A stretch of 64,000 nucleotides of DNA, from positions 17,640 through 81,639 of the forward strand of contig CAZRJH010000003.1 of assembly GCA_964600575.1 (NCBI GenBank), in the 5' to 3' direction. Source of the DNA: an uncultured Gammaproteobacteria bacterium. Its GTDB lineage: Bacteria; Patescibacteriota; Microgenomatia; UBA8517. Both the position numbers and the translations under genes were made by a program. The notes under the pieces are model-generated. The model searched no databases, was not told the origin of the DNA, and saw only the letters and a list, made by a program, of their open reading frames with translations. Shown here in pieces: positions 3,499 to 26,604 of the stretch (position 1 is the first letter of the stretch; each line of letters begins with the position of its first letter).

Positions 3499-3527
3499 AT
3501 TATAGTCTTTTCGAGCTCAAAAGTCAA
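3499..3527 (-). promoter_or_regulatory. Consensus sigma70-type promoter TTGACT-17-TATAAT driving a leaderless transcript of the NTase gene
   Basis: Minus strand reads TTGACT tttgagctcgaaaagac TATAAT cgtgccc ATG; -35 at 3522-3527, -10 at 3499-3504. Confidence 0.55.
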
Positions 3528-3561
3528 TACTACAGGATATTACATTAATATTTTTGACCAC

Positions 3562-3595
3562 AAAAAAAGCGGGCACCTTTTTAATGGGTACCCGC
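3562..3595 (-). terminator. Intrinsic terminator between the small upstream gene and the NTase gene (minus strand)
   Basis: Imperfect 9-bp stem gcgggcacc/ggtacccgc with 9-nt loop; A7 on plus strand means a T-run follows the hairpin on the minus strand. Confidence 0.45.
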
Positions 3596-3624
3596 TAGGC
3601 CAGAAATATAAAACCTAAATGTTG

Positions 3625-4065
3625 TTAGGAAAACGAAAGTTTCATCTTTCTCACGACCTTAATCTTGCTGGAAGGAATGTCGTTTCCAATGAAACCGTCT
3701 TCATAAAACATGATGAGCTCGCCGCCGCCGTCGTATTTGCCGTTTTTTAGACGCCTGGCTTCCACATGCCAAGACTCACCTGCGGGGTAAGCCTGTTCAA
3801 CGACAAATTCTGCATTCTCTCGTGACGGATCAGTCCCGCTTATAACTTTTTCGTAAAAGTCCAATTTGGGAAAGTTTCCGTGCTCGCGATAATAAGCGAG
3901 TTTTTCCTCGTCCGTGTAATGAATAAGGAATGTGGTTCCCGATTCTCTGCCTACATGAACTATTTTATTTTCCACGTCTTCGATTCTGTGGTGCCTGCCG
4001 TGAACAAACCATTCCGACATGAGCACAAAACCTTGGCGCAGAGTGGCTTTCGAGGGCTGTCTCAT
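3625..4065 (-). CDS. Hypothetical protein, ~146 aa, no TM segment, no recognised domain
   Basis: ORF on minus strand; ATG at 4065 is preceded by AAAGAGG 6 nt upstream. The longer ORF to 4125 starts at TTG inside the promoter region. Confidence 0.45.
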   Translation of the reverse strand: MRQPSKATLRQGFVLMSEWFVHGRHHRIEDVENKIVHVGRESGTTFLIHYTDEEKLAYYREHGNFPKLDFYEKVISGTDPSRENAEFVVEQAYPAGESWHVEARRLKNGKYDGGGELIMFYEDGFIGNDIPSSKIKVVRKMKLSFS

Positions 4066-4135
4066 ATAACCTCTTTTTAATTTAGGGTGCACAATTATAT
4101 TAAACCCAAAAGTAGAATTAGTCAAGATTATAGGT

Positions 4136-4141
4136 TATAAT
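4136..4141 (+). promoter_or_regulatory. -10 box TATAAT placed 6 nt before the ATG of the 4148 gene (leaderless arrangement)
   Basis: ggtTATAATatcgatATG; weak -35 candidate TAGAAT 17 nt upstream. Confidence 0.4.
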
Positions 4142-4147
4142 ATCGAT

Positions 4148-4975
4148 ATGACCGAAAAATTTTACGAGCAGGACAAAGACTATGCCCACGCCTGTGCAAA
4201 CTTGCTTCACGACCTTCACAGGGAAGGGGTTTTAAGTGTCAACGATTTACAAAAGTTCGGTAACGACCAAATAGAGGAGTTGGTCTTAAGAATTCACAAA
4301 AACGGATTCCCCGCGAGGACCTCCAAAATGAAACTCGGCAATCACGATGAAAAAATTCAAACTATTTTTGCCTCCGATATTGTACCGGCATCGGAAACAC
4401 CCGATAAAAAAGAAATAACTGCTTTTGTATCCGACTTTTTGCAGTATATACGCTCAATAGGCTACGACGAGGTTACGGGCGCTTTGGTCTATGGCAGTCT
4501 TTTGGACAAACGGAAAAAGCCCAGATCCACAAGCGATTTAGATATAACACTCTTGGTGAGTAGCTCCTCGGGAGCCGTGCATTTGGAAAATGCATGGCTC
4601 AGAAACCCCAACTCGGAAGTGGGTTCAGGTGATATACCTACCGAGTCAAGATACTATGACCTAACTGAAGATGCATACAAATTTGCAAAATTAAAACACC
4701 CTAAATTTGCAGACAGAGAGTTTTCTATAAATAACGTATTAAACAAAGAACTTTTCAATTATCGCATGGACCCTTTTGATAAAAAAGAAGCTCCCTGGTG
4801 GCTATATTCAACGGGAATATTTGCCGTGGGCGGTTTTCCTGGAGTTTCGGAGGCAGCACTTAATAATACTCTGCAAAAAGCACTAAAGTCTAAGTGGTTG
4901 GCAGAACTTAAACAAAGGACCATTAACGATATCAAAAAAGATCTGGATCATAATTTTGGAAAAATGGGGAAATAA
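4148..4975 (+). CDS. Nucleotidyltransferase-domain protein of the kanamycin/lincosamide NTase (ANT/MNT-like) type
   Basis: GALVYGSLLDKRKKPRSTSDLDITLLV matches the hG[GS]-x12-DhD Pol-beta fold signature (compare KNTase YGSLARGE..SDIDLLV); 275 aa. Confidence 0.55.
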   Translation: MTEKFYEQDKDYAHACANLLHDLHREGVLSVNDLQKFGNDQIEELVLRIHKNGFPARTSKMKLGNHDEKIQTIFASDIVPASETPDKKEITAFVSDFLQYIRSIGYDEVTGALVYGSLLDKRKKPRSTSDLDITLLVSSSSGAVHLENAWLRNPNSEVGSGDIPTESRYYDLTEDAYKFAKLKHPKFADREFSINNVLNKELFNYRMDPFDKKEAPWWLYSTGIFAVGGFPGVSEAALNNTLQKALKSKWLAELKQRTINDIKKDLDHNFGKMGK

Positions 4976-4996
4976 ACTGTTTAGGCAGGGTCATGA

Positions 4997-5776
4997 TTAA
5001 TTTTTTGGCCAATAGGTTTTGGCCGGGTTTTTGAGGTTTGCGTCGCTGTGTTCAGTTGTGTGAATAACAACAGGAATCAGAGTTGGACTCACCCCCGCGT
5101 AAGTATCTGTGTCCAGATAAGAATTGCAGGACATAAAATAAACTCCACCATAGCGCGCAATGTTTCCTGTTTTTACATTTGAAACTTGAGAAATTAAAGT
5201 ATTTGCTAAAATTTCTTCGTCGTTTGCACCATTTATAGCTAGATTAAATACTCCGTCTTCACTAAAAACTCTTCCGTGAGCATTGAAAACGGCTATTCTT
5301 TTGCCGTCTTTTGCTAAGTTATGAAGCACAGCAAGCGCCTCGAGTGAGTCTTTGCAGTTTGTTTCTATTGCCGTTCTCCTTATCCTTGCAAGAGATTTTG
5401 TTAAGCAAAAAGGAGCGTTGATTGTAAGGATTTGTCTGTTAATGGTTTTTTTAGAATAAATATCGTTCAGAGTAGTTGCTTTTTCATCCGCTTTCTTTAT
5501 ATCTTCGGTTAAGTCGTCAACTGTTGTAAAAAGGTCATATTTGTAGGCAGTGCCAAAAAAATAAGAAACAACATCAGGAATGTAGACAAAATTTCTGTGC
5601 AATGGTGTTTTGTTGGTCTCGGAAGGTAATTGTATAAACAAGTTTTTACTCATTTCTTGCTTTTTAGCCATCGAAAAGTCGGCCTCGGCTGAATAACTTT
5701 TGTTCTGCCACGGGCCTGCGCCTAGGCACGAACTAAGTGCAAATCTTTGTTGAGAATAAATTGTAGCTTCAAACAT
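4997..5776 (-). CDS. Hypothetical protein (259 aa)
   Basis: Long ORF; ATG at 5776 sits 6 nt downstream of a consensus TATAAT; no recognised motif. Confidence 0.5.
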   Translation of the reverse strand: MFEATIYSQQRFALSSCLGAGPWQNKSYSAEADFSMAKKQEMSKNLFIQLPSETNKTPLHRNFVYIPDVVSYFFGTAYKYDLFTTVDDLTEDIKKADEKATTLNDIYSKKTINRQILTINAPFCLTKSLARIRRTAIETNCKDSLEALAVLHNLAKDGKRIAVFNAHGRVFSEDGVFNLAINGANDEEILANTLISQVSNVKTGNIARYGGVYFMSCNSYLDTDTYAGVSPTLIPVVIHTTEHSDANLKNPAKTYWPKN

Positions 5777-5782
5777 CCTATA

Positions 5783-5810
5783 ATTATATACTTTCTGAAC
5801 TCAAAGTCAA
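5783..5810 (-). promoter_or_regulatory. Consensus promoter TTGACT-16-TATAAT for the 4997..5776 gene (leaderless)
   Basis: Minus strand reads cccTATAATaTTGACTttgagttcagaaagtaTATAATtataggATG; the spacer closely resembles that of the 3499-3527 promoter. Confidence 0.5.
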
Positions 5811-5939
5811 TATTATAGGGTTAAATTTATAATCTGATAATCTTGGTCAACAAACTCAATTAGGTTTGAACGAATACAAGACAATTTAAATTGAAATATT
5901 TTTTAGCATACTCAAAACTTATCTGCTAAAATAATCGTT

Positions 5940-8630
5940 GTGTTGAATATATTTTCTAAACTTTTGGATCTAAATCAGAGAGAAGTCGACCGCATCAAAA
6001 AAATAGTAGAAAAAGTTAACGCTTTAGAACCCAAGACAAAAAAACTAAAAGATTCCGATTTTTCCAAAAAAACTCAAGAATTTAAAAAGAGATTGGAAAA
6101 AGGTGAAACTTTGGAGTCGATACTACCCGAAGCCTATGCACTTGTAAGGGAAGCGTCCTACAGAATTTTAGGCAAGAGGCATTACGATGTACAGCTTGTT
6201 GCCGCGGTTGCCTTGTTCGAAGGCCGTGTTGCCGAACAAAAAACAGGAGAAGGTAAAACTTTGTCTGCTGTTCCTGCACTTTATTTACGCGCTTTAACTG
6301 GGCAAGGAGTTCATTTGGTTACCGTTAACGATTATTTGGCCCGTCGTGACGCGGGTTGGAATGCTCCGATTTTTCATCTTTTAGGTCTAACCACGGGTGC
6401 AATAATCCAGGAAACAAAATCTTTTGTCTACGACCCAAAGTTTTCCGACTCCAGCCACGGTGACGAACGCTTGGCACATCTCAAACCGACAGAAAGAAAA
6501 GAAGCATATAAATCCGACATTTTATACGGTACCAATAACGAATTCGGATTTGATTATTTGCGCGACAACATGGTTAACGCCTTATCCGAGATGGTTCAGC
6601 GCGGACATTATTTTGCAATAGTAGACGAGGTGGACTCCGTACTTATCGACGAGGCAAGAACCCCTCTAATTATTTCTGCCCCCGATACCGAGCCCACAAA
6701 AAAATATTACGAGTTTGCATCTTTAGTCGAAAAACTTAATCCAGATACAGATTTTAAAATCGACGAAAAAGCAAAAAGCGCAACTTTAACCGAAACGGGA
6801 ATAACAAGAGTAGAAAAACTTTTAGGAATAGACAATCTTTACGAAAAAGACTTCGACAGTATTCATCATATAGAAAACGCATTACGCGCAAAAACTCTTT
6901 ATTTAAGAGATCGTGACTATGTAGTTAAAGATAATCAAATAACTATAGTAGACGAATTTACGGGGCGTCTTATGGTGGGCAGACGCTGGAGCGACGGACT
7001 CCACCAAGCCGTGGAAGCAAAAGAAAATGTAACTATTCAGCAAGAAAGTAGGACGCTGGCAACTATTTCTTTCCAGAATTATTTTAGGATGTACGAACAT
7101 TTGTCGGGTATGACGGGTACTGCCTCAACCGAGTCGGAAGAATTTAGAAAGATTTATAAGCTGGAAGTTATCGTTATACCCACCCACAGACAAATGGTAA
7201 GAATTGACAAAAGCGACATGATCTTTAAAACCTTGCGCGGAAAATACGGAGCGATTGTAGAAGAAGTAGCAGAAAGAAGCGAAGCTGGGCAACCGGTTCT
7301 TATTGGTACCACCTCCATCGAGAAAAACGAAATTATTTCCGAATTTCTCAAACGCAAGAAAGTTCCACACAATGTTTTAAACGCCAAAAATCACGAAAAA
7401 GAGGCCGAGATTATTGCCGAAGCCGGTAAACCGGGGGCTGTAACAGTTGCTACCAATATGGCAGGCCGCGGTGTTGATATCGTTTTGGGCGGTGCTATGC
7501 CCGACAGAAAAAACGGGGAAACAAACGAAAAATACGAATCCAGTCGTGAATATAAAGATTGGCAAAAAATTCATAATCAGGTACTCGATGCAGGCGGGCT
7601 TTATGTAATCGGAACCGAACGCCACGAAGCACGTCGCGTTGATAACCAGTTAAGAGGTCGTTCTGGTAGGCAGGGCGACAGCGGAACTTCCAGATTTTAT
7701 CTTTCTTTGGAAGACGATCTTATGAGAATTTTCGGCGGCGAGCAAATATCGGGAATTATGGACAGACTTAATTTGCCCGAGGACCAACCGATAGAAAATT
7801 CCTTAATAAGTAGGGCAATCGAACAAGCCCAGGTTAAAGTAGAAGGTTTCCACTTTGACATCAGAAAACGACTAGTTGAGTTTGACGATGTGGCCAATCA
7901 ACAAAGAGATATTGTTTATAAACTACGAAGAAGAATCCTTGAATCAACCGATGTTAAAGAAGAGGTTTTAGAAAAACTCCATCATCAGCTGGAAAAAACA
8001 CTTTTGTTGGCAACTGGGGTAGAAGACGAAAAAGTAGATGACGATCAACTGGCGGTAGGTCTTGCCGAAATGGTACCTTTTGACGACGACTCCCTTAAGC
8101 GTATTAAAGGCGAGATCCAAAAACAGGAAAATAAACTGGAGTTTTTGAAGAGTGTTCTCAAAGATATTTACACAGCCCGCGAAAAAGATTTGGGAGAAAA
8201 GGTTATGCGGGAGGTAGAAAAGTATGCATATTTAGGGGCAATAGATCATCTTTGGATGGATCATATAGACCACATAGACGATCTTCGGGAAGGTGTAACT
8301 CTTAGGGCATACGGCCAAAGGGACCCCTTGGTAGAGTTTAAAAACGAAGCATATAGGCTTTTCGAAACCTTAATAGATAAAATAGACGAAGAGCTTTCTC
8401 ATAGGATATTTAGAATAGGCGTTGCTATGCCCCAAAGCGAAATCCCCTTAAATCTTGCAAGGGAAAACTTGGACAAAACCGACCTAACGGGGCTTTCGGG
8501 TGGTGCCGACGAAACCGCAAAATCAGGAGCCAAAGCCTTTGATAAATCCAAACTTTCCAGAAACGACCCCTGTTGGTGCGGCAGCGGCAAAAAGTGGAAG
8601 AAGTGCCACTACCCCAAGCTTCCCGCTTAA
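5940..8630 (+). CDS. secA: Preprotein translocase ATPase subunit SecA
   Basis: DEAD-motor Walker A (AEQKTGEGKTL) and Walker B (VDEVDSVLIDEARTPLIIS), then GRGVDIVLGG and LRGRSGRQGDSG; C-terminal zinc finger CWCGSGKKWKKCH; 896 aa. Confidence 0.95.
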   Translation: MLNIFSKLLDLNQREVDRIKKIVEKVNALEPKTKKLKDSDFSKKTQEFKKRLEKGETLESILPEAYALVREASYRILGKRHYDVQLVAAVALFEGRVAEQKTGEGKTLSAVPALYLRALTGQGVHLVTVNDYLARRDAGWNAPIFHLLGLTTGAIIQETKSFVYDPKFSDSSHGDERLAHLKPTERKEAYKSDILYGTNNEFGFDYLRDNMVNALSEMVQRGHYFAIVDEVDSVLIDEARTPLIISAPDTEPTKKYYEFASLVEKLNPDTDFKIDEKAKSATLTETGITRVEKLLGIDNLYEKDFDSIHHIENALRAKTLYLRDRDYVVKDNQITIVDEFTGRLMVGRRWSDGLHQAVEAKENVTIQQESRTLATISFQNYFRMYEHLSGMTGTASTESEEFRKIYKLEVIVIPTHRQMVRIDKSDMIFKTLRGKYGAIVEEVAERSEAGQPVLIGTTSIEKNEIISEFLKRKKVPHNVLNAKNHEKEAEIIAEAGKPGAVTVATNMAGRGVDIVLGGAMPDRKNGETNEKYESSREYKDWQKIHNQVLDAGGLYVIGTERHEARRVDNQLRGRSGRQGDSGTSRFYLSLEDDLMRIFGGEQISGIMDRLNLPEDQPIENSLISRAIEQAQVKVEGFHFDIRKRLVEFDDVANQQRDIVYKLRRRILESTDVKEEVLEKLHHQLEKTLLLATGVEDEKVDDDQLAVGLAEMVPFDDDSLKRIKGEIQKQENKLEFLKSVLKDIYTAREKDLGEKVMREVEKYAYLGAIDHLWMDHIDHIDDLREGVTLRAYGQRDPLVEFKNEAYRLFETLIDKIDEELSHRIFRIGVAMPQSEIPLNLARENLDKTDLTGLSGGADETAKSGAKAFDKSKLSRNDPCWCGSGKKWKKCHYPKLPA

Positions 8631-8657
8631 GCAAAAATACCGACAGCACGACCTTTT

Positions 8658-8666
8658 TGATATAAT
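8658..8666 (+). promoter_or_regulatory. Extended -10 promoter TGaTATAAT, 6 nt before ATG 8673 (leaderless)
   Basis: tttTGaTATAATctccatATG. Confidence 0.45.
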
Positions 8667-8672
8667 CTCCAT

Positions 8673-9446
8673 ATGGAATCTACAAACAAAAGAAGTAGCA
8701 GGCAGGAGTTGGCTAGTACAGGCCCAGCCGTGTACCAAGTCTTTAAAGAGCTAATACTTCATCCCAGAAGAAATGATAGCCATGGAAACTTGTACTACAA
8801 ACCGGGGGAAAAGTGGACAAGACCGGGCTGGGTCGACTTCGAAAAAGATGTCTCCAAAGATCATGGGCGTTTGAGTGCGTTCAATAACGAGCAGGAGAAA
8901 TATATAGATCAGTGCCGCATATTCTTGAGAGATTCTATAACAGATAGCGAAACATCACTTGCGAAGAGATTTGCCAAAAAGTGGGAAGCTTCCAACAAAA
9001 CCAAAGCCGAGTTCGAGGACTTACTCTGTGATTCCTTTTTGGATTGTTTTAACGAAGCAGTCGATAAAGAACCACATCTACTACCTGCATTCTATGGCTT
9101 TTTAGTCTCCTCTTTTAACGGTGTCGAAGGTCTCGAACTTGCACTCACAATGAGTATTTATTCGGATAGCATTGCCAATACAAGGTTAAATGAAAATATG
9201 AATAAATTTGTCGATATGCATGAGGATAAAAATGAACTGGGTGCCCCTAAAACATACGAAGTTCAATGTGCCGCACCTCTTCTTGCTATGAAAATAATTG
9301 ATCAAGGCAGGGAATGCTTAAAAAATGCAGGACTCACACAGGGCGATAAATCTATTAAAAATTCTAAGTCTAAATTGGCAGGACTTGCCACTGACCTGAG
9401 AACCGACTTAATGGTAAGAATGATTAAAGCCGGATTCCAAATCTGA
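8673..9446 (+). CDS. Hypothetical protein, member of an in-window paralogous pair (family A, copy 1)
   Basis: Shares colinear blocks with the 16676..17470 product: YQVFKELILHPRR / YQIYKDLIENPGR; LPAFYGFLVSSFNGVEGLELAL / TPAFYAFLISSGAGSEGLMIAL; YEVQCAAPLLAMKII / YEVQCAAPALTLKII. Confidence 0.6.
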   Translation: MESTNKRSSRQELASTGPAVYQVFKELILHPRRNDSHGNLYYKPGEKWTRPGWVDFEKDVSKDHGRLSAFNNEQEKYIDQCRIFLRDSITDSETSLAKRFAKKWEASNKTKAEFEDLLCDSFLDCFNEAVDKEPHLLPAFYGFLVSSFNGVEGLELALTMSIYSDSIANTRLNENMNKFVDMHEDKNELGAPKTYEVQCAAPLLAMKIIDQGRECLKNAGLTQGDKSIKNSKSKLAGLATDLRTDLMVRMIKAGFQI

Positions 9447-9486
9447 TTTGTTATTGCTTCACATTCTGTCTAGAATTCAGTAATCG

Positions 9487-10077
9487 ATGATTTTCAAATA
9501 TATTTTTTTCGATTGGCACAAAACATTGTCAAATGATATTTTTTGGCCCGATGACGATTTGATCTCCTTCCAGGTATTTAGAGCAAATTCTGATCTTGCG
9601 GAAAAGTGGATGAGAGGCGCATTGTCATCCGAACAGGTGGCTCTTTTTGTTAGTAATAAAACCGGTATCTCGGAAAAAGTCATCTTGGAAAAACTGGAAA
9701 AGGGCTGTAGGTCAATGAGTTTTTCCATTCCAAAAATGCGGGAGTATATAAAAAAACTAAAAGAGAAAAAAATAAGCTTAGGCATTGCAACCGACAATAT
9801 GGATACTTTTTCCAGGTATACGGTTCCGGCCTTAAACCTTAAAGAAATGTTTGATATATTTTTAATTTCTTCTGATTTGGGCTTTCTCAAAAATGATCTT
9901 GTCAAAGGTCGTCCCGTCTTTTTCGAAAAGTTTCTCAAAGATAATAGTTTAAATTATTCGGATATATTATTAATAGACGACTCACAGAAGGTTGCGAATA
10001 CCTACAAACCTCTTGGAATGAAAATAATAAATGTTACAAAAGACGGAGACCTGGAAACTTTTCTAAAATCGGTATGA
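9487..10077 (+). CDS. HAD-superfamily-like hydrolase with degenerate motif I
   Basis: FFDWHKTL (HAD motif I with His in place of the second Asp), GIATDN, LLIDDSQ (motif IV); 196 aa. Confidence 0.4.
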   Translation: MIFKYIFFDWHKTLSNDIFWPDDDLISFQVFRANSDLAEKWMRGALSSEQVALFVSNKTGISEKVILEKLEKGCRSMSFSIPKMREYIKKLKEKKISLGIATDNMDTFSRYTVPALNLKEMFDIFLISSDLGFLKNDLVKGRPVFFEKFLKDNSLNYSDILLIDDSQKVANTYKPLGMKIINVTKDGDLETFLKSV

Positions 10078-11546
10078 AATTTAGATTTAATAAAGAAAGT
10101 ATTTTTATTTTAGCGGTAGTTGTGTTTGCCTTTTTATTACGGGTTTATGGCATAGATAAAGACCTGCTTTATCACAGAGACCAGGGTTTGGTTGCCATGG
10201 ATATTTATAAAATTTGGCACGACAAAAAAATATCTCTGATAGGTGCCCCCACGGATGTTGACGGCTTGTATCATTCACCAGTTTATTATTGGATTTTGAC
10301 ACCACTTTATTGGCTGGGTAGGGGAGATGTTGTTTATCCCGCAATATTTCAAATTTTGCTGGAAATGCTATCATTGCCGCTTTTGTATTTTGGAGTAAAA
10401 AAACTGTTTGATAAAAAAACTGCTATTTTTACTTTAATTTTATATTCGGTTTCATACGGACTAATTTCTTATAGCAGGTGGTTTATAACGGTTCCTTTTA
10501 TACTCCCGCTGGCCAATATTCTTATATATTTTCTGTCAAAAGGGAAAAATATTTTTCGAGAATCGCTTTTGGTGGGAATGATATCTCAAACAAACGCTGC
10601 CGCAGGTGTCTTCTATATACCTTTTATCTTGTTTAGGTACAGAAAAGAAATAAATTTAGTCAATCTAATCAAATCGGCTACTGCATTCATAATACCCGCA
10701 ATTCCACTTGTTGTTTTTCAGTTCCGTCACGATTTTGTTATTTTCAAAACGGTCGCCGCCTATTCGTCGGGATCTGCTGGACTAGGGTTTAGCCTTTCGG
10801 TTTACGCAAAAAATCTGGTAATCTTTTTGCAGGAAATTAATCACATCATTTATTACCCGTTTGCGGCGCTTACTACATTCTTATTCATATACGGCCTATC
10901 TAAAATAAAACAGCATAAAGAACTAATATTTTCTTACATTTTTATACCGTTTGTTTTTCTGGGACTTTATCAAAGGGGGGCTATTAGTTTTTTCTTTATG
11001 GCGGCACTGCCCATGCTTTTATCGGTTGTTGTATTTGGAATAACGAAGTTTCCGTTATTATTGAGAAATTTATTTTTGATAACTGTTATTGTGTCAAATC
11101 TGTTACTTTTAAAAAATGTTTACGAGCCAAATAATGCACTCATTCCCATAGGTGACAGAAATGTGATAACCATTTCTGACAGAAAGAAAATTATTGATTG
11201 GATGTATAAAAAAGCCGAAGGAAAAGATTTCTCTTTGTGGATTTATACAATTCCTTATTTTCAGGACTACCCATGGGACTATCTATTTACAACTTACGCT
11301 CTACCTAAGTACGGATATCTTCCCGAAAAAACTGGATCGTTTTCCAAAAACGACCTAAACAAATCCGTTTACTTTTTTAATGTCTATGAAGTTGATCATG
11401 ACAACTCGTCGAGGCAGGATTCCTGGTTTTTTGATATTCAAAACAATTTCGGTAAAACAAAGGAATATGTCGGGTATCATGACGTTCACATAGAACTTAG
11501 ATCTTGGAGCGCGACTGTCGACTCTTCGAAAAAGAAAACCTTTTAA
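10074..11546 (+). CDS. Polytopic membrane protein, GT39 (PMT/ArnT-like, GT-C fold) glycosyltransferase-like; paralog 1 of 3
   Basis: Many TM segments; N-terminal loop DQGLVAMD...LIGAPTDVDGLYHSPVYYWILTPLYWLG is colinear with the 49178 and 51668 products. Confidence 0.6.
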   Translation: MKFRFNKESIFILAVVVFAFLLRVYGIDKDLLYHRDQGLVAMDIYKIWHDKKISLIGAPTDVDGLYHSPVYYWILTPLYWLGRGDVVYPAIFQILLEMLSLPLLYFGVKKLFDKKTAIFTLILYSVSYGLISYSRWFITVPFILPLANILIYFLSKGKNIFRESLLVGMISQTNAAAGVFYIPFILFRYRKEINLVNLIKSATAFIIPAIPLVVFQFRHDFVIFKTVAAYSSGSAGLGFSLSVYAKNLVIFLQEINHIIYYPFAALTTFLFIYGLSKIKQHKELIFSYIFIPFVFLGLYQRGAISFFFMAALPMLLSVVVFGITKFPLLLRNLFLITVIVSNLLLLKNVYEPNNALIPIGDRNVITISDRKKIIDWMYKKAEGKDFSLWIYTIPYFQDYPWDYLFTTYALPKYGYLPEKTGSFSKNDLNKSVYFFNVYEVDHDNSSRQDSWFFDIQNNFGKTKEYVGYHDVHIELRSWSATVDSSKKKTF

Positions 11547-11586
11547 GTTTATTCTCTGCGGTTAGAAATCTCTGCTAAGATTACAT

Positions 11587-17494: not shown

Positions 17495-18169
17495 ATGTTA
17501 AAATCCGCCGTTATGACGGAAATTTTAAGATTAGCCCCTGACGTAATTGTTTTTGACCGAAAAATCGAAAAAAGTTTTACTTCGGTTGATTTTAAACTCA
17601 AAGTTGTTGACTGGCAGGAAGTCGACTTGATGGTTAGGCACGGATCACTTTTGATTAACGACGAAGAAGCCAGAAGTGTTATTGCCGAAACTGACTTCAT
17701 TTCCAAAGAAAACATACTTAAGGAAAGGTCCTCAAGACCTCCCGACGACGACAGAGTTTTTGCACGGAGACAATGGCAATACAGGCGATATTTATCTCAA
17801 AAGATTGGAGAAAAAGACCCGTTGGATTACTCGGCTCTGCAATGGATGACTAAAGATTTGGCGCAGTCGGAAGAGCGACATGTTTTTGAAAACGGAATGC
17901 GGTTGGAAATTCCAGAAATTGATTTTATTCCGGGTGCCGTTTTAGAAGTTCATCAAGTGAGCGGTGACACCTTTTACTATAAGTTTCCAAATATTGTGTC
18001 GGAAAATAACATCCGCCTTATGGTTCAAGTTCCTTCGGATAAGATCCAAAGTGGAAAATATAAAGTAATGACGCCTTCTGATATTAGAAACGCATTTGAA
18101 TTGTATGGTGCCGTAAACGGTCTAACCTATTCCTGGGTTCTGGCGGACAGCATTATAAAAATGCAATGA
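17495..18169 (+). CDS. Hypothetical protein (224 aa)
   Basis: Long ORF in the operon context; no recognised motif. Confidence 0.45.
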   Translation: MLKSAVMTEILRLAPDVIVFDRKIEKSFTSVDFKLKVVDWQEVDLMVRHGSLLINDEEARSVIAETDFISKENILKERSSRPPDDDRVFARRQWQYRRYLSQKIGEKDPLDYSALQWMTKDLAQSEERHVFENGMRLEIPEIDFIPGAVLEVHQVSGDTFYYKFPNIVSENNIRLMVQVPSDKIQSGKYKVMTPSDIRNAFELYGAVNGLTYSWVLADSIIKMQ

Positions 18170-18233
18170 CATCCTCCTCACACGAAAGTGCGAGATTCAC
18201 ACAATGAGGATGACGCACCAATTGTTCAATTTG

Positions 18234-18262
18234 TACTCGCATTTATAAGCGAGTTTTTTTAA
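18234..18262 (+). terminator. Intrinsic terminator (actcgc-atttataa-gcgagt plus T7)
   Basis: 6-bp stem, 8-nt loop, T7 at 18255-18261; preceded by a second imperfect hairpin at 18172-18216. Confidence 0.6.
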
Positions 18263-18267
18263 ACAAT

Positions 18268-18276
18268 TGGTATAAT
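18268..18276 (+). promoter_or_regulatory. Extended -10 promoter TGgTATAAT, 6 nt before ATG 18283 (leaderless)
   Basis: attGGTATAATgtttgtATG. Confidence 0.45.
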
Positions 18277-18282
18277 GTTTGT

Positions 18283-19746: not shown

Positions 19747-19754
19747 ACTAAGCA

Positions 19755-20327
19755 ATGACTGCTCGTACTCATAATGCATTTGCGTTCGCTTCGCTTATAA
19801 CTGCCGCCGCATTTATTCCCGTAGATAAAATTAACACCACAACCTTAATATTTGCGGTTATTGGTACAAACATAGGTGCTCTTATTCCTGATATGGATAC
19901 TTCGGGAAATTACCTTTGGGGACTTTTGCCTCAGGGAGATATCTTAGGAAGTTATCTTCGAAGAATCTTTTATAAACACCGAACAATAACCCACTCTCTT
20001 TTGGGATTTTTCTTGATATTTAAGTCTTTGGAGTGGCTTTTGACCAAACTTTTAAACCCCGGTTTTGTGGACCCTTATGTGATTTTGGTAGCAATAATGA
20101 TAGGGTATGCTTCACATCTTCTTTCGGATAGTCTTACCGAGGAAGGCATTCCCCTTCTTTTTCCTTTGCATTTAACTTTTGGAATACCGCCTATCAAAAA
20201 AGTCAGAATAAAAACAGGCGGGTGGTTCGAAAATCTGGTTATATTCCCCGCAATCTGGATTTATTTGGTTTGGTTTGTAAACTTGAATAAAGATACTTTT
20301 CTTTCAATATTTAAAAAACTAGTTTAG
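19755..20327 (+). CDS. Membrane-bound metal-dependent hydrolase-like protein (YdjM/DUF457-like)
   Basis: HRTITHSLLG motif, several TM segments, 190 aa. Confidence 0.45.
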   Translation: MTARTHNAFAFASLITAAAFIPVDKINTTTLIFAVIGTNIGALIPDMDTSGNYLWGLLPQGDILGSYLRRIFYKHRTITHSLLGFFLIFKSLEWLLTKLLNPGFVDPYVILVAIMIGYASHLLSDSLTEEGIPLLFPLHLTFGIPPIKKVRIKTGGWFENLVIFPAIWIYLVWFVNLNKDTFLSIFKKLV

Positions 20328-20339
20328 TTTTCCCCACAA

Positions 20340-20378
20340 AAAAGCCCCCGTTGGAGAAATTCCTAGGGGGCCTGGCGG
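20340..20378 (-). terminator. Intrinsic terminator for the minus-strand nucleosidase gene; hairpin overlaps its stop codon
   Basis: gccccc-N16-gggggc stem; the minus-strand reading is followed by TTTTTTGTGG. Confidence 0.5.
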
Positions 20379-21109
20379 GCAAAATACATAAGTACAAATC
20401 GGAGTGCAACATCGGCGCTGTTTTCTGCAGCTTCCTGATAATGAGATTTGTCTTTCTCACCGTCTGCGTAATCGCTCACGCTTCTAACGGCGATAAAAGG
20501 CACACCATTTTCGGAAGCAACTTTGGCAGCCCAATAAGATTCCATATCCACGACACTGCCGCGGAAGTTTGTTCGGATCACCTCGACTGTTTCCGGGTTG
20601 GAAACAAATACATCGGAAGTAACGCCGCTTTCGGGAATTCCTACATTGGTTAAGCCATGCGCAATTTGGACAAAATCGTCGTTGATATCAATAACATTTC
20701 CGCTTCCAAGATCGTACCAACTGGTTGGAACAACGGTGTCACCGATAGCAAGACTTTCATCAATCCCTCCCGCTATGCCGGAAAAAACTATTGCCTCAAC
20801 ATCAAAATTTTCAATTGTCTTTTGAGTTGAGTTTACGGCGTTTTCGGGACCGACACCTGTTGAGAAGATTACTATTTCGTAACCTCTAAGATCGGCAACG
20901 GTATATAGGATTTCGTCCTCTAAGCACTGAGAAATGATATCCACTCTGCTTTCGACCGCTTGTCGTTCCATCCCAAAGGCGGTAGCCACAAAAATATGGC
21001 TTTGGCCGCTTATTTCGGGGTAACAGGTATTTTGGTTTCCGTTGGAAACGCAACCCGTTAAAAGAACCAAAGAGACAAGTAGTGCAAAGATATGTTTGGA
21101 CACAAACAC
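20363..21109 (-). CDS. PNP/UDP-1 family nucleosidase (MTA/SAH-nucleosidase-like) with lipoprotein-type signal peptide
   Basis: FSGIAGGI, VDMES, VRSVSD motifs (MtnN/Pfs-like); N-terminal hydrophobic segment ending LLTGC (lipobox); GTG start. Confidence 0.6.
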   Translation of the reverse strand: MFVSKHIFALLVSLVLLTGCVSNGNQNTCYPEISGQSHIFVATAFGMERQAVESRVDIISQCLEDEILYTVADLRGYEIVIFSTGVGPENAVNSTQKTIENFDVEAIVFSGIAGGIDESLAIGDTVVPTSWYDLGSGNVIDINDDFVQIAHGLTNVGIPESGVTSDVFVSNPETVEVIRTNFRGSVVDMESYWAAKVASENGVPFIAVRSVSDYADGEKDKSHYQEAAENSADVALRFVLMYFARQAP

Positions 21110-21158
21110 TCCTCGTTACAAGTTAATAATGTCAAACTATGCAAGCTGACAAGGCTAA

Positions 21159-21187
21159 ATTCTAGCAGAAAACTCTCAAGAAGTCAA
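21159..21187 (-). promoter_or_regulatory. Promoter TTGACT-17-TAGAAT upstream of the nucleosidase gene
   Basis: Minus strand reads cccatagtaTTGACTtcttgagagttttctgcTAGAAT. Confidence 0.4.
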
Positions 21188-21209
21188 TACTATGGGGTTA
21201 CAAAATAAA

Positions 21210-21719
21210 CTACCCAAGAAGCTTTTCAAGTTTATCGAGGGCCTCGTTGAAGTCGTCCGCGTTGTCCAAATTCAATCTACCTTCGGTCGTGTAGTTCTTC
21301 TTAAGCGTCATGCGGGACGATTCGGGGGAAATAACAATATAGTCCATTACCACCTCTCTGGGCTCGTCTGTTCCTACAATAAATTTCCCGAAATAGGCTT
21401 CCTCGTCACCGTAACTATTTGGGTTGTAATACGGCAAAATGATAATAGTTAGTCCTTTTTTGTGCGAAAGTTCGGCTCCAACACCTACGGCTTCTTGGCC
21501 GGGAAGAATATAATCAAAAAAAGCTAGCGCTATGGCCAGGCCAGGTTTGTGGGAATTCAGAGCTTCTGCAATGTTTTTTCCATGCTTAAGATCTGCCTCC
21601 AAAGATATAATTTTGATTTCATGCTTAAAACCTTCGGCTAGTTGCTTTATGCGTGAGTCCATCCTTATAGCGTCGGCAAAAGCCGTTACCACAAGCGATT
21701 CCTTTGTTTCTTTTTCCAT
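21210..21719 (-). CDS. Hypothetical protein (169 aa), possibly a Rossmann-like fold
   Basis: Long ORF; no confident motif. Confidence 0.4.
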   Translation of the reverse strand: MEKETKESLVVTAFADAIRMDSRIKQLAEGFKHEIKIISLEADLKHGKNIAEALNSHKPGLAIALAFFDYILPGQEAVGVGAELSHKKGLTIIILPYYNPNSYGDEEAYFGKFIVGTDEPREVVMDYIVISPESSRMTLKKNYTTEGRLNLDNADDFNEALDKLEKLLG

Positions 21720-21906
21720 TTGCGAATTTTACCATGCATTTCAAGAAAACCACGTCATTTAACGGCATGGATGAATTGAACGCAGGGCGAAAATTGGTTT
21801 TGCAACCTTAAAAAACGGAGTATATTTTACTTCGGCAGTTTTACACCTTTTCCTGTAAAAAGCATAAAAAAGATGGTAGTATCTTTTTGCGGGTATAGTT
21901 TTATAT

Positions 21907-22470
21907 ATGGAAAATCAAGCTCAACAAAACAGTCCCCCTTACGAATTTTCAGAAAACAAAACAAATCTTATTGCTCTCGGTATTGCTTTGGGTTTAGTAG
22001 CTTTGGGATTTTTCTTTTTTACAAAAATGAATTCAAAGCAAGAAAAAATTAGCGACTATACAAGTCCTACTTCGGCAGCTACAATAACATCTGGTTCGGC
22101 CCCGACGCCTCAAACTTCGGTAGCCGCCAAAAAACAAATTATGGATAACGGGCTAGAAATTCAAGATTTGGTAGTAGGAACAGGGGCAGAAGCAACTGTA
22201 GGAAAAAAGATTACCGTTAACTATACGGGAACACTTACCGACGGCACAAAGTTTGATAGCTCCAAAGATCATGGAACACCTTTTAGCTTTACACTTGGCG
22301 CGGGACAGGTCATCCAAGGTTGGGATCAGGGATTTGCAGGAATGAAAATAGGCGGAAAAAGAAAACTCACTATCCCGGCAAGTTTGGGTTATGGCGATAG
22401 CGGTGTACCTGGTGCTATTCCTCCCGGGGCAACTTTGATATTCGAAGTTGAACTTCTTAAGGTTGAATAA
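21907..22470 (+). CDS. FKBP-type peptidyl-prolyl cis-trans isomerase with N-terminal membrane anchor
   Basis: [57 protein letters not shown] is the canonical FKBP domain. Confidence 0.85.
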
Positions 22471-22545
22471 CTTTATAACCGATAGTTTGCAAACAAAAAC
22501 TTCTTTTTGTACAATTCAGCGGTTCAGATTTAAAATGGAGAAGCT

Positions 22546-23064
22546 ATGAGCTCGTTTAAAAATTCCAAACTGTTAGGGCTTTTGGTTGCGGTAGCCATTT
22601 CGGGTTTGATTATCATTTTTCGAGAGCAAATTGCGGCGCTTGCGGGATACGGCTATGCAGGCCTGTTTCTTTTGAATGTTTTCGGAAGCGCGACGCTTTT
22701 TTTGCCGACACCGCTATTTCTAACTACCGTTGCTGCAGCTTCGGTTCTCAATCCTTTTTGGGTAACAATTGTTGCGGCAGCAGGCGGGACCATTGGTGAG
22801 CTGACTGGTTATTTGGCTGGCAAAAGCGGTTCAGAGATTGTAAGCAGTCATGCGGAACGCATACAAGGGTGGATGGAAAAGTATGGAGCCTTTGCCCTTT
22901 TTGTGCTAGCCGCAATCCCAAACCCGTTGTTTGACATAGCCGGAATTATCGCTGGAGCAACAGGTATTCCTGTTTGGAAATATCTGCTGGCTCTTTTTTT
23001 CGGCAAAATAATCAAATTCGGCGCTTTGGCGTTTTTTGGTTACCAAACCATCAAGTTGTTTTAG
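22546..23064 (+). CDS. DedA/YqaA-family (SNARE-associated, TVP38-like) membrane protein
   Basis: Small 4-TM protein with LNPFWV.....GGTIGELTGYLAG pattern. Confidence 0.65.
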   Translation: MSSFKNSKLLGLLVAVAISGLIIIFREQIAALAGYGYAGLFLLNVFGSATLFLPTPLFLTTVAAASVLNPFWVTIVAAAGGTIGELTGYLAGKSGSEIVSSHAERIQGWMEKYGAFALFVLAAIPNPLFDIAGIIAGATGIPVWKYLLALFFGKIIKFGALAFFGYQTIKLF

Positions 23065-23068
23065 GTCC

Positions 23069-23107
23069 AAAGGCCTGCACTTTTTAACGGTGCAGGCCTT
23101 TTTTTGT
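23069..23107 (+). terminator. Strong intrinsic terminator
   Basis: aaggcctgcac-tttttaacg-gtgcaggcctt with 10-bp perfect stem, followed by T8. Confidence 0.75.
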
Positions 23108-23166
23108 TAATAAACCTTGCAAACCTGTTAAACTGGAATAATAATTTAGAAAAGGAGGTGATTTTG

Positions 23167-23580
23167 ATGATTAATTTATCAACTAATTGGTTGCCTATAG
23201 CTGCTTCTGCAATTGCATCTATGGTTTTGGGATTTGTTTGGTATTCAAAAGTACTTTTCGGTCAGGAGTGGGCGGAGCTCACAAAAATCCCCCTAAAAGA
23301 AATGACACCCAAAAAAGGTGCAGCAAAAGTTTATTTATTGGGGACTATAAGCGCATTTGTTACCGCTTTTGTTCTAAAACAATTTATAGATCTTTTTTAT
23401 ATTGTTAATGTAATGGACGCCCTGCAGCTTGCTTTTTGGATTTGGTTTGGTTTTTGTGCAACCGTCTTACTAACGGGTGTTTTGTATAAAAAAGAATCCT
23501 GGAAGCTTTTTATAATTAATGCGGGCTATCAGTTGGCAAGCCTAATGGCTATGGCTGCCATCTTTAGTTATTGGCAGTAA
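23167..23580 (+). CDS. DUF1761-like small membrane protein
   Basis: MINLSTNWLPIAASAIASMVLGFVWYS N-terminus; SD AAGGAGGTG 8 nt upstream of ATG 23167; the track ORF starts further upstream at 23104. Confidence 0.5.
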   Translation: MINLSTNWLPIAASAIASMVLGFVWYSKVLFGQEWAELTKIPLKEMTPKKGAAKVYLLGTISAFVTAFVLKQFIDLFYIVNVMDALQLAFWIWFGFCATVLLTGVLYKKESWKLFIINAGYQLASLMAMAAIFSYWQ

Positions 23581-23594
23581 GTAAATAAAAGAAA

Positions 23595-24173
23595 ATGGGA
23601 AAATTCCTGCTCGGTATATTTGCTTTGGCCGTATTCGCCGGGGCTATCTATCTTTTTGCGTTTCATAAAAACGGATTTGAATTTAGCTCGGGTGGTATTT
23701 CTATCGGCCGTGCAACAATGTCTTTTAGTAGTCAGGAATTTAGAAACGGCGGGGAGATTCCTATACGCTTCACTTGCGATGGAGAAAATGTAATCCCTCC
23801 TATGACTATAGACAGAACCCCGGGTGATGCTTCGAGTTTGGTGATAATTATAGAAGACACAAATTCAAAACCGGAGGGATTTACTCATTGGCTTATCTAT
23901 AATATCGATCCCTCGAGGCAAAATATAGAATTTGGCAAGACCCCGGAAGAAGCCGAAACCGGCAGAAACGATTTTGGTAATGTGGGCTACGGCGGTCCTT
24001 GCCCACCTCAGGCGGAGGCGCATAAATACAACTTTAAAGTTTATGCTCTTAAAACAAAGCTTGCCATCGAAGGTAACGCCACCCGTACAGAAGTAGAAAG
24101 GGCAATGCAAGGAATGATAATTGCCCAAGGTGGTTTTAGCGGAATTTACACCAACCAGTTCGCAACCAGATGA
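23595..24173 (+). CDS. PEBP (YbhB/YbcL) family protein with N-terminal membrane anchor
   Basis: GYGGPCPP..HKYNFKVYAL signature of bacterial PEBP/Raf-kinase-inhibitor-like proteins. Confidence 0.8.
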   Translation: MGKFLLGIFALAVFAGAIYLFAFHKNGFEFSSGGISIGRATMSFSSQEFRNGGEIPIRFTCDGENVIPPMTIDRTPGDASSLVIIIEDTNSKPEGFTHWLIYNIDPSRQNIEFGKTPEEAETGRNDFGNVGYGGPCPPQAEAHKYNFKVYALKTKLAIEGNATRTEVERAMQGMIIAQGGFSGIYTNQFATR

Positions 24174-24185
24174 TACAATCCTCGG

Positions 24186-25286
24186 GTGAGAAATAAATTT
24201 TTTAAATATAAAGGCGGCAAGCTCCAACTCCCCGTATTTTTCCCCGACGCAACACGGGGTGTTCTAAAATCTTTAGATAGTTTAGATATCAAAAATACAC
24301 AAACTCCCGGAGTTCTCGTAAATACTTATCATTTATGGCACGGCCTTCCTCAAAAAATACTTAACGAATTTGGAGGGATTAGGCAATTTATGAATTGGCA
24401 GGGTGCTGTTATATCGGATTCGGGAGGATTCCAGGTTATGTCTGTTATTAAAAAGGGTGTCACCAAAGGAAAAATAAAAGACGAAGGAATTGTTATGTAT
24501 CCCGGTAAAAACAGAAGGTTGGTTTTTAGCCCCGAAGATTCAATAAGATTTCAGATGAACCTGGAAACGGATATGGTTGTGGTTTTAGACGATTTTACAG
24601 ATCCCGACGGAGATAAATCGGATGCTACAGAATCCGTAGAAAGAACTGTTATGTGGGCCGAAAGGTCAAAAAAAGAATTCGAAAAAATTTGCAAAAAGAA
24701 GGGTTTATCCAAAGAAGAAAGGCCATATCTATTGGGAGTAGTTCAGGGTGGGGAGTTTGCCGATGTTCGCAAAGATTGTGCAGTTAGACTAGGGAGAATA
24801 GGCTTCGACGGCTTTGGTTGGGGCGGTTGGCCAATAAACAAAGAGGGAAATTTGGATTTGGAAAGCGCAAAAATTATTTCGGAAAACGCACCCGAAGATT
24901 ATTTACTTTATGGTTTGGGAGTGGGTAAGCCCGAAGATATTGTTGAGAGCGTTAAATTGGGATTTGGAATTTTTGACTGTGTTTTGCCCACCAGGGACGG
25001 GAGACACGGCAGATTGTATGTTTTTGATGCTCCCGATATCTCGCAAATAAATTTACAAAACTCTGACTTCTATCATTTTTATGATGCAAAAAAAGAGAAA
25101 CATTTAACCGATAAGTCGCCCGTAAGTACTGCTTGCGATTGTCTTTTGTGCACAAATTACTCACGCGGCTATCTGTCACATTTATTTAAAATAGGAGATG
25201 TAACCGCTATGCGTTTGGCTTCTATTCACAACCTGCGTTTCTACTCAATTCTCATGGAGAAGCTTAAAGATAGTTCTCCATTCTAA
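24186..25286 (+). CDS. tgt: tRNA-guanine transglycosylase (queuine tRNA-ribosyltransferase) family
   Basis: SDSGGFQV, LVFSPE, DCVLPTRDGRHG, Zn motif CDCLLC..H. Confidence 0.75.
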   Translation: MRNKFFKYKGGKLQLPVFFPDATRGVLKSLDSLDIKNTQTPGVLVNTYHLWHGLPQKILNEFGGIRQFMNWQGAVISDSGGFQVMSVIKKGVTKGKIKDEGIVMYPGKNRRLVFSPEDSIRFQMNLETDMVVVLDDFTDPDGDKSDATESVERTVMWAERSKKEFEKICKKKGLSKEERPYLLGVVQGGEFADVRKDCAVRLGRIGFDGFGWGGWPINKEGNLDLESAKIISENAPEDYLLYGLGVGKPEDIVESVKLGFGIFDCVLPTRDGRHGRLYVFDAPDISQINLQNSDFYHFYDAKKEKHLTDKSPVSTACDCLLCTNYSRGYLSHLFKIGDVTAMRLASIHNLRFYSILMEKLKDSSPF

Positions 25287-25315
25287 ATTTTTAATCAAAC
25301 CTATTTTGCGAGGGG

Positions 25316-25343
25316 TTGACAAATGCAATCATGGGCATATATA
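25316..25343 (+). promoter_or_regulatory. Promoter TTGACA-16-TATATA for the LytR_C gene
   Basis: ggggTTGACAaatgcaatcatgggcaTATATAct, about 30 nt before ATG 25374. Confidence 0.45.
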
Positions 25344-25373
25344 CTGACGCACTTGTAAGGGTAGCCTTAAAAA

Positions 25374-26054
25374 ATGGAAGAAAATCAAAATTCACAACCT
25401 CAAGAAACATATAGTCCTCAAGAACAAAGCGGCGTTTCCTTTCCCACAATAAATCCCGAACCAAAAAAATCAGGCGGACCAAAAATGTTTTTGATAATCG
25501 GAATTTTAATCCTGGTTGCAATACTCGGTTTTGTTATTTATAAAAGTGCGACTAAAAAATCAGATGCCCCCGAAGCTACTCCTTTTGCAAATTTAACAAC
25601 CACTGACACACCAAGCAGTTTCCCTACACCCACACCCACACCCGTCGGAACACCTAAAGCTTCTATAGATAAATCTAAAATAGTTATCGAGATTCAAAAT
25701 GGAACAGGAATAACAGGTGAAGCGGGTTATTTGCAAACACAACTCAAAAGCTTGGGTTACACAAATACCAAAGTTGGAAACGCGCCGACTCAGGATGCAA
25801 CGGCAACAACGGTTACTTTTTCTTCCAAACTTGATGCAAGCATAGTTTCGGAACTTACACAAAAATTAAATTCTCTTTATCAAACAGTTACAACCAAAAC
25901 ATCAACATCTCAAACCTCCGATGTTATCGTGGTAACGGGAGTCAGAAAAGGAGCATCGGCTTCTTCTACGGCAACCCCAAGAGCAACCGCATCCCCAACG
26001 GGAACACCTAAGGCAACTGTTTCTCCAACTCCCAAGGCAACAACAACCCCTTAA
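25374..26054 (+). CDS. LytR C-terminal (LytR_C) domain protein; membrane anchor, Pro/Thr-rich linkers
   Basis: IEIQNGTGITGEAGYLQTQLKSLGY is the typical LytR_C core; TM at residues ~38-56; PTPTPTP and C-terminal TPK repeats. Confidence 0.65.
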   Translation: MEENQNSQPQETYSPQEQSGVSFPTINPEPKKSGGPKMFLIIGILILVAILGFVIYKSATKKSDAPEATPFANLTTTDTPSSFPTPTPTPVGTPKASIDKSKIVIEIQNGTGITGEAGYLQTQLKSLGYTNTKVGNAPTQDATATTVTFSSKLDASIVSELTQKLNSLYQTVTTKTSTSQTSDVIVVTGVRKGASASSTATPRATASPTGTPKATVSPTPKATTTP

Positions 26055-26080
26055 TTTCCCCTGTGCTAGAATGATTCTAA

Positions 26081-26536
26081 ATGGAGCTCTTTTTTGAGTA
26101 TTTTTCAAAGACTATTGATGTGGACCTGTTGGGCAAAAACATTCCTGTTCCTTACGTACAAGTTTCACTTCTCGTTTTTCTTATCTTTCTCTTGATTCTT
26201 ACAATGGCTCAGTACAGAAGACATACAGTTGACTACTCATTCAAAGGTGCAGGCTTCGGAATACTTTTTGGTTTTATGCTGGCCCTTACCCTTGAAGGTT
26301 TTTTACTGGTAAAGGGAAGTACTGCAATTACCTCACTATTAGGCTGGAAAAATGCACCCAAGCCGATAAGTGTTATGCTTGATTCGGGTAGAACAAAGCT
26401 GGAGCAAGTTTTGGGCATGCAGGATAGTGCCCAAGCAGTTGTTAAATCCAGTATTCCCCAAGAAGCAATAAAAGTTTTTCAAGGTCTTACCCCCCAGGAT
26501 AGAGAGAAAATTAAGAGCCTAATTTGTACTCCGTAA
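26081..26536 (+). CDS. Hypothetical membrane protein (151 aa)
   Basis: Two or three hydrophobic segments; no motif. Confidence 0.4.
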   Translation: MELFFEYFSKTIDVDLLGKNIPVPYVQVSLLVFLIFLLILTMAQYRRHTVDYSFKGAGFGILFGFMLALTLEGFLLVKGSTAITSLLGWKNAPKPISVMLDSGRTKLEQVLGMQDSAQAVVKSSIPQEAIKVFQGLTPQDREKIKSLICTP

Positions 26537-26575
26537 AGCCTTCCAATTTACGATTTAGATAAGTAGCCTATAATC

Positions 26576-26604
26576 TTGACATTTGATCAAAAATACTGTA
26601 TGAT
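26576..26604 (+). promoter_or_regulatory. Promoter TTGACA-17-TATGAT at the AT-rich left edge of the GC-rich island
   Basis: gccTATAATcTTGACAtttgatcaaaaatactgTATGAT; implies a ~190-nt leader before ATG 26799. Confidence 0.45.

Follow-up and report, generated by a model that had tools for sequence, protein, structure and literature searches.

A conserved box abutting the -35 hexamer of promoters in a Patescibacteria-like genome, and the factors that may read it

Introduction

In Bacillus, the -44 AGCA element of Spx and the α C-terminal domain (α-CTD) of RNA polymerase is short and asymmetric, keeps a fixed position, works through a polymerase-bound cofactor and is found at functionally mixed genes. 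The proximal subsite of the UP element, of the Escherichia coli rrnB P1 type, has an A/T-tract consensus, is read through the minor groove and lies at -46 to -38 (Estrem et al. 1998/1999, as summarized in PMC4390567). Promoter-proximal regulator sites include those of class II CRP/FNR at -41.5, OR2 of λ cI, and the Mu Mor site at -43.5 (in part from PMC4390567), and putative mobile promoters have been described as sequences at least 80% identical over at least 50 nucleotides (nt) ahead of non-paralogous genes (Matus-Garcia, Nijveen and van Passel 2012; PMC3575422). Here we describe an asymmetric box of about 11 bp that immediately precedes the -35 hexamer of five promoters in a 64,000-nt stretch of DNA (contig CAZRJH010000003.1 of assembly GCA_964600575.1, positions 17,640 to 81,639), hereafter called the window. 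The full unit reads A-N-CC-Y-R-T-A-R-T-[A/C]-TTGAC[T/A] and is a real, shared cis-regulatory element. Our literature searches returned no description of this box, nor of the promoter architecture or regulons of Patescibacteria or the candidate phyla radiation (CPR).

With the proximal UP subsite the box shares its place directly upstream of the -35 hexamer (ca. -46 to -38), a single orientation, an AT-rich core and an association with strong promoters; it differs in lacking the A/T-tract consensus and in having an invariant CC, a conserved A at -46, variants that are transitions only, and inverted copies by the -10. Like the sites of CRP/FNR, cI and Mor it is sequence-specific, abuts the -35 and is conserved upstream of orthologues, and further copies over the -10 would allow dual control; those sites, however, are dyad-symmetric and usually accompany a poor -35, whereas the box is asymmetric and stands beside a consensus one. 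The Spx element resembles it as a short asymmetric sequence at a fixed spot just upstream of the -35 of functionally mixed genes, but the sequence of the box is different and longer, and its inverted -10 copies would be left unexplained. With mobile promoters it shares the occurrence of similar promoters ahead of unrelated genes, both inside one genome and between taxa, yet box promoters generally have only some 17 positions in common and their flanks and spacers are unrelated. The box is a previously undescribed promoter-proximal cis-element, not a new category of element. Compared by eye with the known operator consensuses, CtsR (GGTCAAA repeats), the Fur, NrdR and DnaA boxes and IHF gave no fit, nor did CodY, for which there is only the word TTCAGAAA in the spacers of gene D and of metagenome locus L179. 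The XerC arm of the Firmicutes dif site (TTCCTATAA) was set aside as well: only one arm resembles the box, which occurs many times per genome.

The box at five promoters of the window

Each of the five box promoters points at a gene start on its own strand (Table 1), the last of them at the first gene of the GC-rich block, and the first-pass annotation of this DNA had placed them on the correct strands and within a few bases. It had also correctly read TTGACT (TTGACA at one site) as a -35 hexamer followed 16-17 nt on by a TATAAT-like -10 (TAnnAT); with 9-11 of 12 consensus matches, the five are promoters of the σ70/σA type. A single base separates the 8-mer of the box from the -35 at all five sites, as at the three box-fused promoters of gene A orthologues described below (L216, L220, L223), and in all of these the box occupies -46 to -36. 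An A stands two bases before the CC at every window site, a feature that had been overlooked. The CC is invariant and all variants of the box are transitions. These variants recur independently, looser extra copies in metagenome loci reusing them: CCTGTAGT is found in the window and in L179, CCCATAGT in the window and in L103, and CCCATAGC in L223 and L163. The invariant CC and the transition-only variants point to base- or shape-specific reading, unlike the degenerate A/T tracts of UP elements.

Five copies of the composite CCYRTART-N-TTGAC are present in the window, where 0.01 would be expected, and the degenerate form CCYRTARTNTTGAC retrieves exactly these five; since the pattern came from the sites themselves, this statistic is post hoc. 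CCTATAATNTTGAC at up to 2 mismatches gave 8 matches in the window against 1.9 expected, a number reached in 0 of 100 shuffles. The recurrence noted in the first-pass annotation thus holds. TTGAG, proposed as a further part of the module, does not hold up as such: it follows the -35 only at 3527, 5810 and 21187, at offsets of 1, 0 and 2 nt, is replaced by TTGAT at site 26576, has no counterpart at site 4125, and is present in 5 of the 96 metagenome instances listed below.

The box promoters are the only intergenic promoters of the form TTGAC[AT]-N16-18-TAnn[AT]T in the window, where two looser box-free -35 candidates lie at 25316 and 30589. The majority type is TGnTAnnAT with ATG or GTG 6-8 nt on and no -35, as at 8650-8672, 18262-18282, 26058-26080, 33440-33461, 54892-54912 and 5915-5939, and secA is among the genes with such a promoter (TGcTAAAAT-7 nt-GTG). 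Most promoters of the window are therefore of the extended -10 type with leaderless mRNAs, and the box promoters represent the -35 type.

Table 1. Box promoters and related features in the window, in gene A orthologue loci and behind TagA; 8-mers are given with the following base and TTGAC
Feature	Coordinates	Strand	8-mer, base, TTGAC (coordinates)	Arrangement
Gene A promoter	3499..3538	minus	CCTGTAGT a TTGAC (3536-3523)	A-t-CCTGTAGT-a-TTGACT-17 nt-TATAAT
Gene B promoter	4097..4136	minus	CCTATAAT c TTGAC (4134-4121)	A-a-CCTATAAT-c-TTGACT-17 nt-TAATAT
Gene C promoter	4127..4147	plus		8-mer on opposite strand: ATTATAGG-t-TATAAT-6 nt-ATG(4148)
Gene D promoter	5783..5821	minus	CCTATAAT a TTGAC (5819-5806)	A-c-CCTATAAT-a-TTGACT-16 nt-TATAAT
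Second, inverted 8-mer at gene D promoter	5777..5784	plus		ATTATAGG on the strand of the gene
PNP_UDP_1 nucleosidase promoter	21159..21198	minus	CCCATAGT a TTGAC (21196-21183)	A-c-CCCATAGT-a-TTGACT-17 nt-TAGAAT, TG before -10
Promoter at edge of GC-rich block	26565..26604	plus	CCTATAAT c TTGAC (26567-26580)	A-g-CCTATAAT-c-TTGACA-17 nt-TATGAT
L216, box-fused promoter of gene A orthologue				CCTATAAT a TTGACT-17-TAACAT
L220, box-fused promoter of gene A orthologue				CCTATAAT c TTGACT-17-TAATAT
L223, box-fused promoter of gene A orthologue				CCCATAGC c TTGACT-17-TAAAAT
TagA slot loci				L088, L121, L130, L135, L139, L141, L147, L164, L181, L186, L200

Conservation at orthologues of gene A

Seven independent loci with gene A orthologues (34-41% identity) were found by exact protein look-up, blind to the motif; synteny extends to all of them, gene A and purA being convergent. 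Six of the seven (L216, L220, L223, L217/L218, L219 and L222) bear the 8-mer, either exact or altered by transitions, so that here, in the manner of an operator, the site is kept upstream of diverged orthologues whose flanks have diverged. Three carry the box fused to the -35 (Table 1; the called start codon of L216, upstream of its promoter, is wrong). L217/L218, L219 and L222 share an identical 15-mer, ATTATAGGATATAAT, in which the box is inverted against the -10 and whose flanks are unalignable, and L221 has only a weaker look-alike. The exact 8-mer occurs once per locus, at the gene A promoter, in L216, L217, L219 and L220; L222 has it there and in one other copy, and the word is absent from the other promoters of L217, L219 and L222. 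Six other -35 promoters of L217 and L219 are box-free and have A/T tracts instead (e.g. CCTTAAAAtTTGACT), so the RNA polymerase of these organisms does not need the box. The convergent arrangement of gene A with purA always includes two conserved hypothetical genes, and a gene for an NrtR-like Nudix regulator lies nearby in L216 and L220.

An inverted 8-mer against or over the -10 is found at gene C, in the second copy of gene D, at the three gene A orthologues just mentioned, and in L159 and L179; the arrangement at gene C (4127-4141) is the same as the inverted one in L217, L219 and L222. Gene D, L179 and L159 have two copies, pairing a box upstream of the -35 with an inverted copy in the spacer or at the -10, and the spacing differs among these three clear cases. 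At gene D the 8-mers lie at 5819-5812 and 5777-5784, and the second, which the first-pass annotation had missed, overlaps both the start site and the 3' end of the -10. Inverted second copies are rare, TATAGG being present in 5 of the 96 listed metagenome instances (ca. 5%).

Box promoters in metagenome contigs

Public metagenome contigs were scanned for exact matches to CCTATAATNTTGACTN{16,17}TATAAT, which is present in at least 120 loci. Removal of near-duplicates left 94-96 independent instances among the matches listed, to which the following counts refer. The A at -2, which the pattern does not fix, is found in 69 of 94 instances and a T at -1, likewise left free, in 54 of 94. The base between box and -35 is A in 58, C in 21, G in 11 and T in 4; by a hand count, T precedes the -35 in about a quarter of the box-free -35 promoters of the same loci. 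The stretch just past TTGACT is T-rich, and G stands at -14 in 61 of 94. The register is off by one base in a few variants (L221, L160, L167). Together with the relatives of gene A, these contigs substantiate the earlier claim that conservation upstream of the -35 exceeds what a core promoter needs. The box is under selection: it holds its register, is conserved at unselected positions, precedes orthologues in both orientations, and has spread widely.

None of 80 SecA loci from many phyla (the matches listed from a species-representative genome collection, some 12 CPR metagenome-assembled genomes (MAGs) included) has a promoter-like box; the box is restricted to certain lineages and does not extend to all CPR. 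The metagenome loci belong to chromosomes, with genes for MreB, TagA/WecG, MurB, RuvC, RadA, DivIC, a TrwB-like ATPase and a sortase; a CPR origin is compatible with their GC content of 0.26-0.52, the large number of proteins without a family and one contig of 826 kb. The listed instances have no tRNA or rRNA gene immediately behind them. Viral contigs gave eight exact matches that reduce to one sequence family, and scrambled controls gave 1 and 2; there is thus no viral enrichment, and a phage origin of the box was rejected. This family, which comprises marine and viral contigs (L122, L154, L205-L212) of GC 0.34-0.36 with an exact box promoter, supplies all eight viral matches; in L122 and L154 a tmRNA gene lies ca. 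2 kb downstream of that promoter.

Some further arrangements stand out among the metagenome loci. In L106, L155, L168, L199 and L204 the related short words CTATAGG, CTTAGG and ATTATAGG flank the box promoter on both sides, and L204 has two more box-like promoters, GCTATAAT a TTGACC and ACTATAAT c TTGACT. A family of XerC/D-like tyrosine recombinases of 287 amino acids (L095, L097, L098, L108, L112, L115, L133, L142, L156, L167, L173) has its entire promoter conserved, box and T-rich spacer alike, with a tRNA-Ile(TAT) gene 1-2 kb downstream on the opposite strand.

Downstream genes and variable loci

Compared with the window, L216, L220 and L223 have SecA proteins that are 83-89% identical, whereas gene A is 37-40% and purA 48-49% identical; genes B, C and D are absent from L220 and L223, where gene A directly adjoins secA. 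Given this divergence of gene A and purA and the absence of B, C and D from relatives, the cluster of three box promoters sits in a hypervariable block beside secA (278-5776). A second variable setting is found in 11 metagenome loci (Table 1), where the box promoter lies 7-24 nt after TagA and ahead of genes from at least five families unrelated to one another; in the majority MurB and RuvC come next, which gives a slot of the form MreB–TagA–box promoter–variable gene. The 5' leaders in this slot contain conserved small hairpins, TTACCAAAAGnGGTAA or TCACGTAGCGTGA.

What may read the box

As our tentative first choice, we propose that a conserved regulator with sequence specificity docks on the box, at strong promoters of fast-evolving genes. 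Its reader would then be a protein other than RNA polymerase. Such a regulator of Patescibacteria-like bacteria would occupy about -46 to -36 at box-fused promoters, where, once bound, it would have to touch or compete with σ region 4 and the α-CTD; at promoters with an inverted copy at or over the -10, the bound protein would block open-complex formation. It would in this way switch otherwise very strong promoters of fast-evolving, lineage-specific genes. As to the direction of regulation we rather favour repression or dual control, given that the core promoters are close to consensus as they stand. A regulator accounts for the invariant CC, the transition-only variants, the presence of the 8-mer at orthologues in either orientation and the copies at the -10, and also for the retention of the 8-mer at gene A in L217 and L219. 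Since one factor accounts for all these arrangements, we rank a regulator slightly above an element read by polymerase.

Several observations weigh against a regulator. A plain repressor would not need the very rigid register between box and -35, and near-consensus core promoters are unusual for activator-dependent ones. A classical activator or repressor is made less likely by both the asymmetry of the box and its consensus -35: the box has no dyad symmetry, its logo showing no symmetric half-site and carrying nothing informative upstream of -7. In the listed loci, the 8-mer by itself, away from the composite, shows no enrichment (28 occurrences with CC before TATAAT, against 31 with GG and 29 with GC). 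No candidate gene for a regulator was found, and apart from syntenic housekeeping genes no protein family recurs beside the box in the 120 loci listed; proteins neighbouring the sites have no DNA-binding Pfam domains. The genes behind the box lack a common function: of 18 metagenome-locus products tested, 14 had no match, and only integrase, sortase and methyltransferase scored above the Pfam cut-off. Lastly, every -35 promoter of the window and its close relatives is boxed (the five, L216, L220, L223 and the shifted L221, nine sites in all), which fits a polymerase-intrinsic element more naturally.

Such a polymerase-read element follows closely in our ranking, though we think it somewhat unlikely. 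The box would be a lineage-specific proximal UP subsite or a cofactor-dependent -44-type element that strengthens promoters, read by the α-CTD, by a σ region 4 that carries an extension, or by a cofactor bound to the polymerase. Its position at -46 to -36 is that of the proximal UP subsite (PMC4390567), and orientation and one-base register are fixed in the unbiased sites. Other observations agree with it: the box accompanies a maximal core (consensus -35, 17-nt spacing, G at -14, consensus -10), downstream genes are functionally mixed and from many lineages, the distant relatives L217 and L219 carry A/T tracts where the box would be, and the purine/pyrimidine pattern preserved in the variants fits shape readout. 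But the inverted 8-mer at the -10 of gene A orthologues and the second copies at the -10 are left unexplained, an invariant CC and the lack of A-tracts are unlike any described UP element, and 37 of 45 other -35 promoters in the listed metagenome loci are box-free, so that the element would at best be optional there.

The regulator proposed above could also be given a wider role, which we think rather unlikely: the box would then be an operator or polymerase-cofactor element of a Patescibacteria-wide global regulator, its 8-mer mimicking a -10, that gates maximal-strength promoters of fast-evolving, lineage-specific genes, possibly genes involved in host interaction or conflict.

It is improbable that the box is a mere passenger of promoter reuse, in which a self-sufficient cassette of ca. 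45 nt is copied within and between Patescibacteria genomes. Reuse of promoters across taxa has been described (PMC3575422), and some sites look the part: the promoters of gene D and L160 share ca. 39 of ca. 45 nt (hand count) ahead of non-homologous genes of different organisms, the spacer words TTGAGnTCrrAAA are common to gene A, gene D and L179, and sites lie at variable genes (B, C and D, absent between secA and gene A in L220/L223; the TagA–MurB slot). Yet among the 94-96 listed instances spacers and flanks are unrelated while the box positions and the A at -2 are kept, and persistence of the box would still need selection. In the window, the aligned promoters have a mean column identity of only 58% and no long repeat family (at least 18 nt) covers the sites. 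This falls short of the published threshold of at least 80% over at least 50 nt (PMC3575422), and it speaks against the recently duplicated mobile cassette that the first-pass annotation had envisaged. Common descent would explain the sub-families (gene D with L160; genes A and D with L179) and not the general pattern.

We find it very improbable that the TATAAT inside the box is itself a -10, of a tandem or divergent promoter. It can be paired with weak upstream -35 sequences (TTATCA-17-TATAAT at 5840-5812, TTTACG-16-TATAAT at 26547-26574), and between genes B and C the box directly adjoins the gene C -10; but TGTAGT, a variant that recurs, does not have the A that is essential at position 2, which makes a functional -10 unlikely, CC stands where the extended -10 of this organism has TG, and the logo has no -35-like signal upstream of the box. 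Read on the opposite strand, the variants no longer end in the T of a -10, CCTGTAGT becoming ACTACAGG, and of a divergent hexamer only the complement of the A at -2 is conserved, so that the box is not a symmetric bidirectional promoter. An alternative sigma factor with extended -35 recognition, another earlier suggestion, would suit an element that is confined to a subset of promoters and exceeds the σ70 -35, but deserves next to no credence because the hexamers are σ70-type: TTGAC[T/A], 16-17 nt, TAnnAT and G at -14, the usual extended -10 signal, are the signature of housekeeping σ70/σA, and we know of no alternative-sigma consensus (σ54, σ28, σB, σH, ECF) like the composite.

Further features of the window

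The ATG of gene A (3491) lies only 7 nt past the -10, and its mRNA is therefore probably leaderless; that of gene D (5776) lies 6 nt past. The leader of gene B carries aaagagg ahead of ATG 4065, ca. 50 nt separate the -10 of the nucleosidase gene from its GTG (21109), and the leader behind the block-edge promoter measures ca. 110-190 nt by choice of start codon. This last leader (26611-26799) includes a hairpin, AGTTAGG...CCTAACT, with a T-run behind it (near 26612-26660), and is without an Rfam match at gathering score; hairpin and T-run may be an attenuator. The spacers of gene D (5783-5804) and L179 hold TTCAGAAA and that of gene A (3505-3521) CTCGAAAA; the palindromic word TTC-W-GAA between -35 and -10 could be a separate operator of this promoter sub-family.

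Gene A encodes 600 amino acids with a weak match to Polβ/MntA-like nucleotidyltransferases, gene B 146 and gene D 259 amino acids; annotation of defence systems and protein families gave essentially nothing for genes A-D and the GC-rich block. The block itself (26700-32000) has a GC content of 0.45-0.50 against ca. 0.40 elsewhere, its proteins are without Pfam, NCBIfam and PADLOC matches, and it may be horizontally acquired DNA. Its first open reading frame probably starts at ATG 26800, with the Shine-Dalgarno sequence ggaaggag and a lipoprotein-like signal, MKVNNRLFWVLLVFVGALTFASIACGSS. An rRNA operon was ruled out for the block because it has no Rfam or tRNA matches; no tRNAs or Rfam families at gathering score were found anywhere in the window. 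The closest SecA proteins among the matches listed belong to MAGs of Ca. Levyibacteriota (57%) and Collierbacteria (54%), and the majority of the window proteins tested have no family match; the window looks like part of a Patescibacteria/CPR genome. Attempts to extend this genome yielded nothing beyond identical Logan contigs, 1.2 and 9.7 kb long, and a purA look-up gave no match.

Significance

The box is real, widespread and testable; its function as a docking site is a prediction from sequence. It offers a concrete means of predicting strong or conditional expression of "dark matter" genes, CCTATAAT-N-TTGACT offers a defined bait for capturing the protein that reads the box, and the box promoter is a candidate strong or portable promoter for new genetic systems in Patescibacteria. 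If polymerase itself turned out to be the reader, this would be a clear departure from the A-tract rule of UP elements. If a global regulator were to read the box, the box promoters would be the first transcriptional circuit akin to a regulon to be defined in this uncultured radiation, and would provide a handle for controllable promoters in these organisms.

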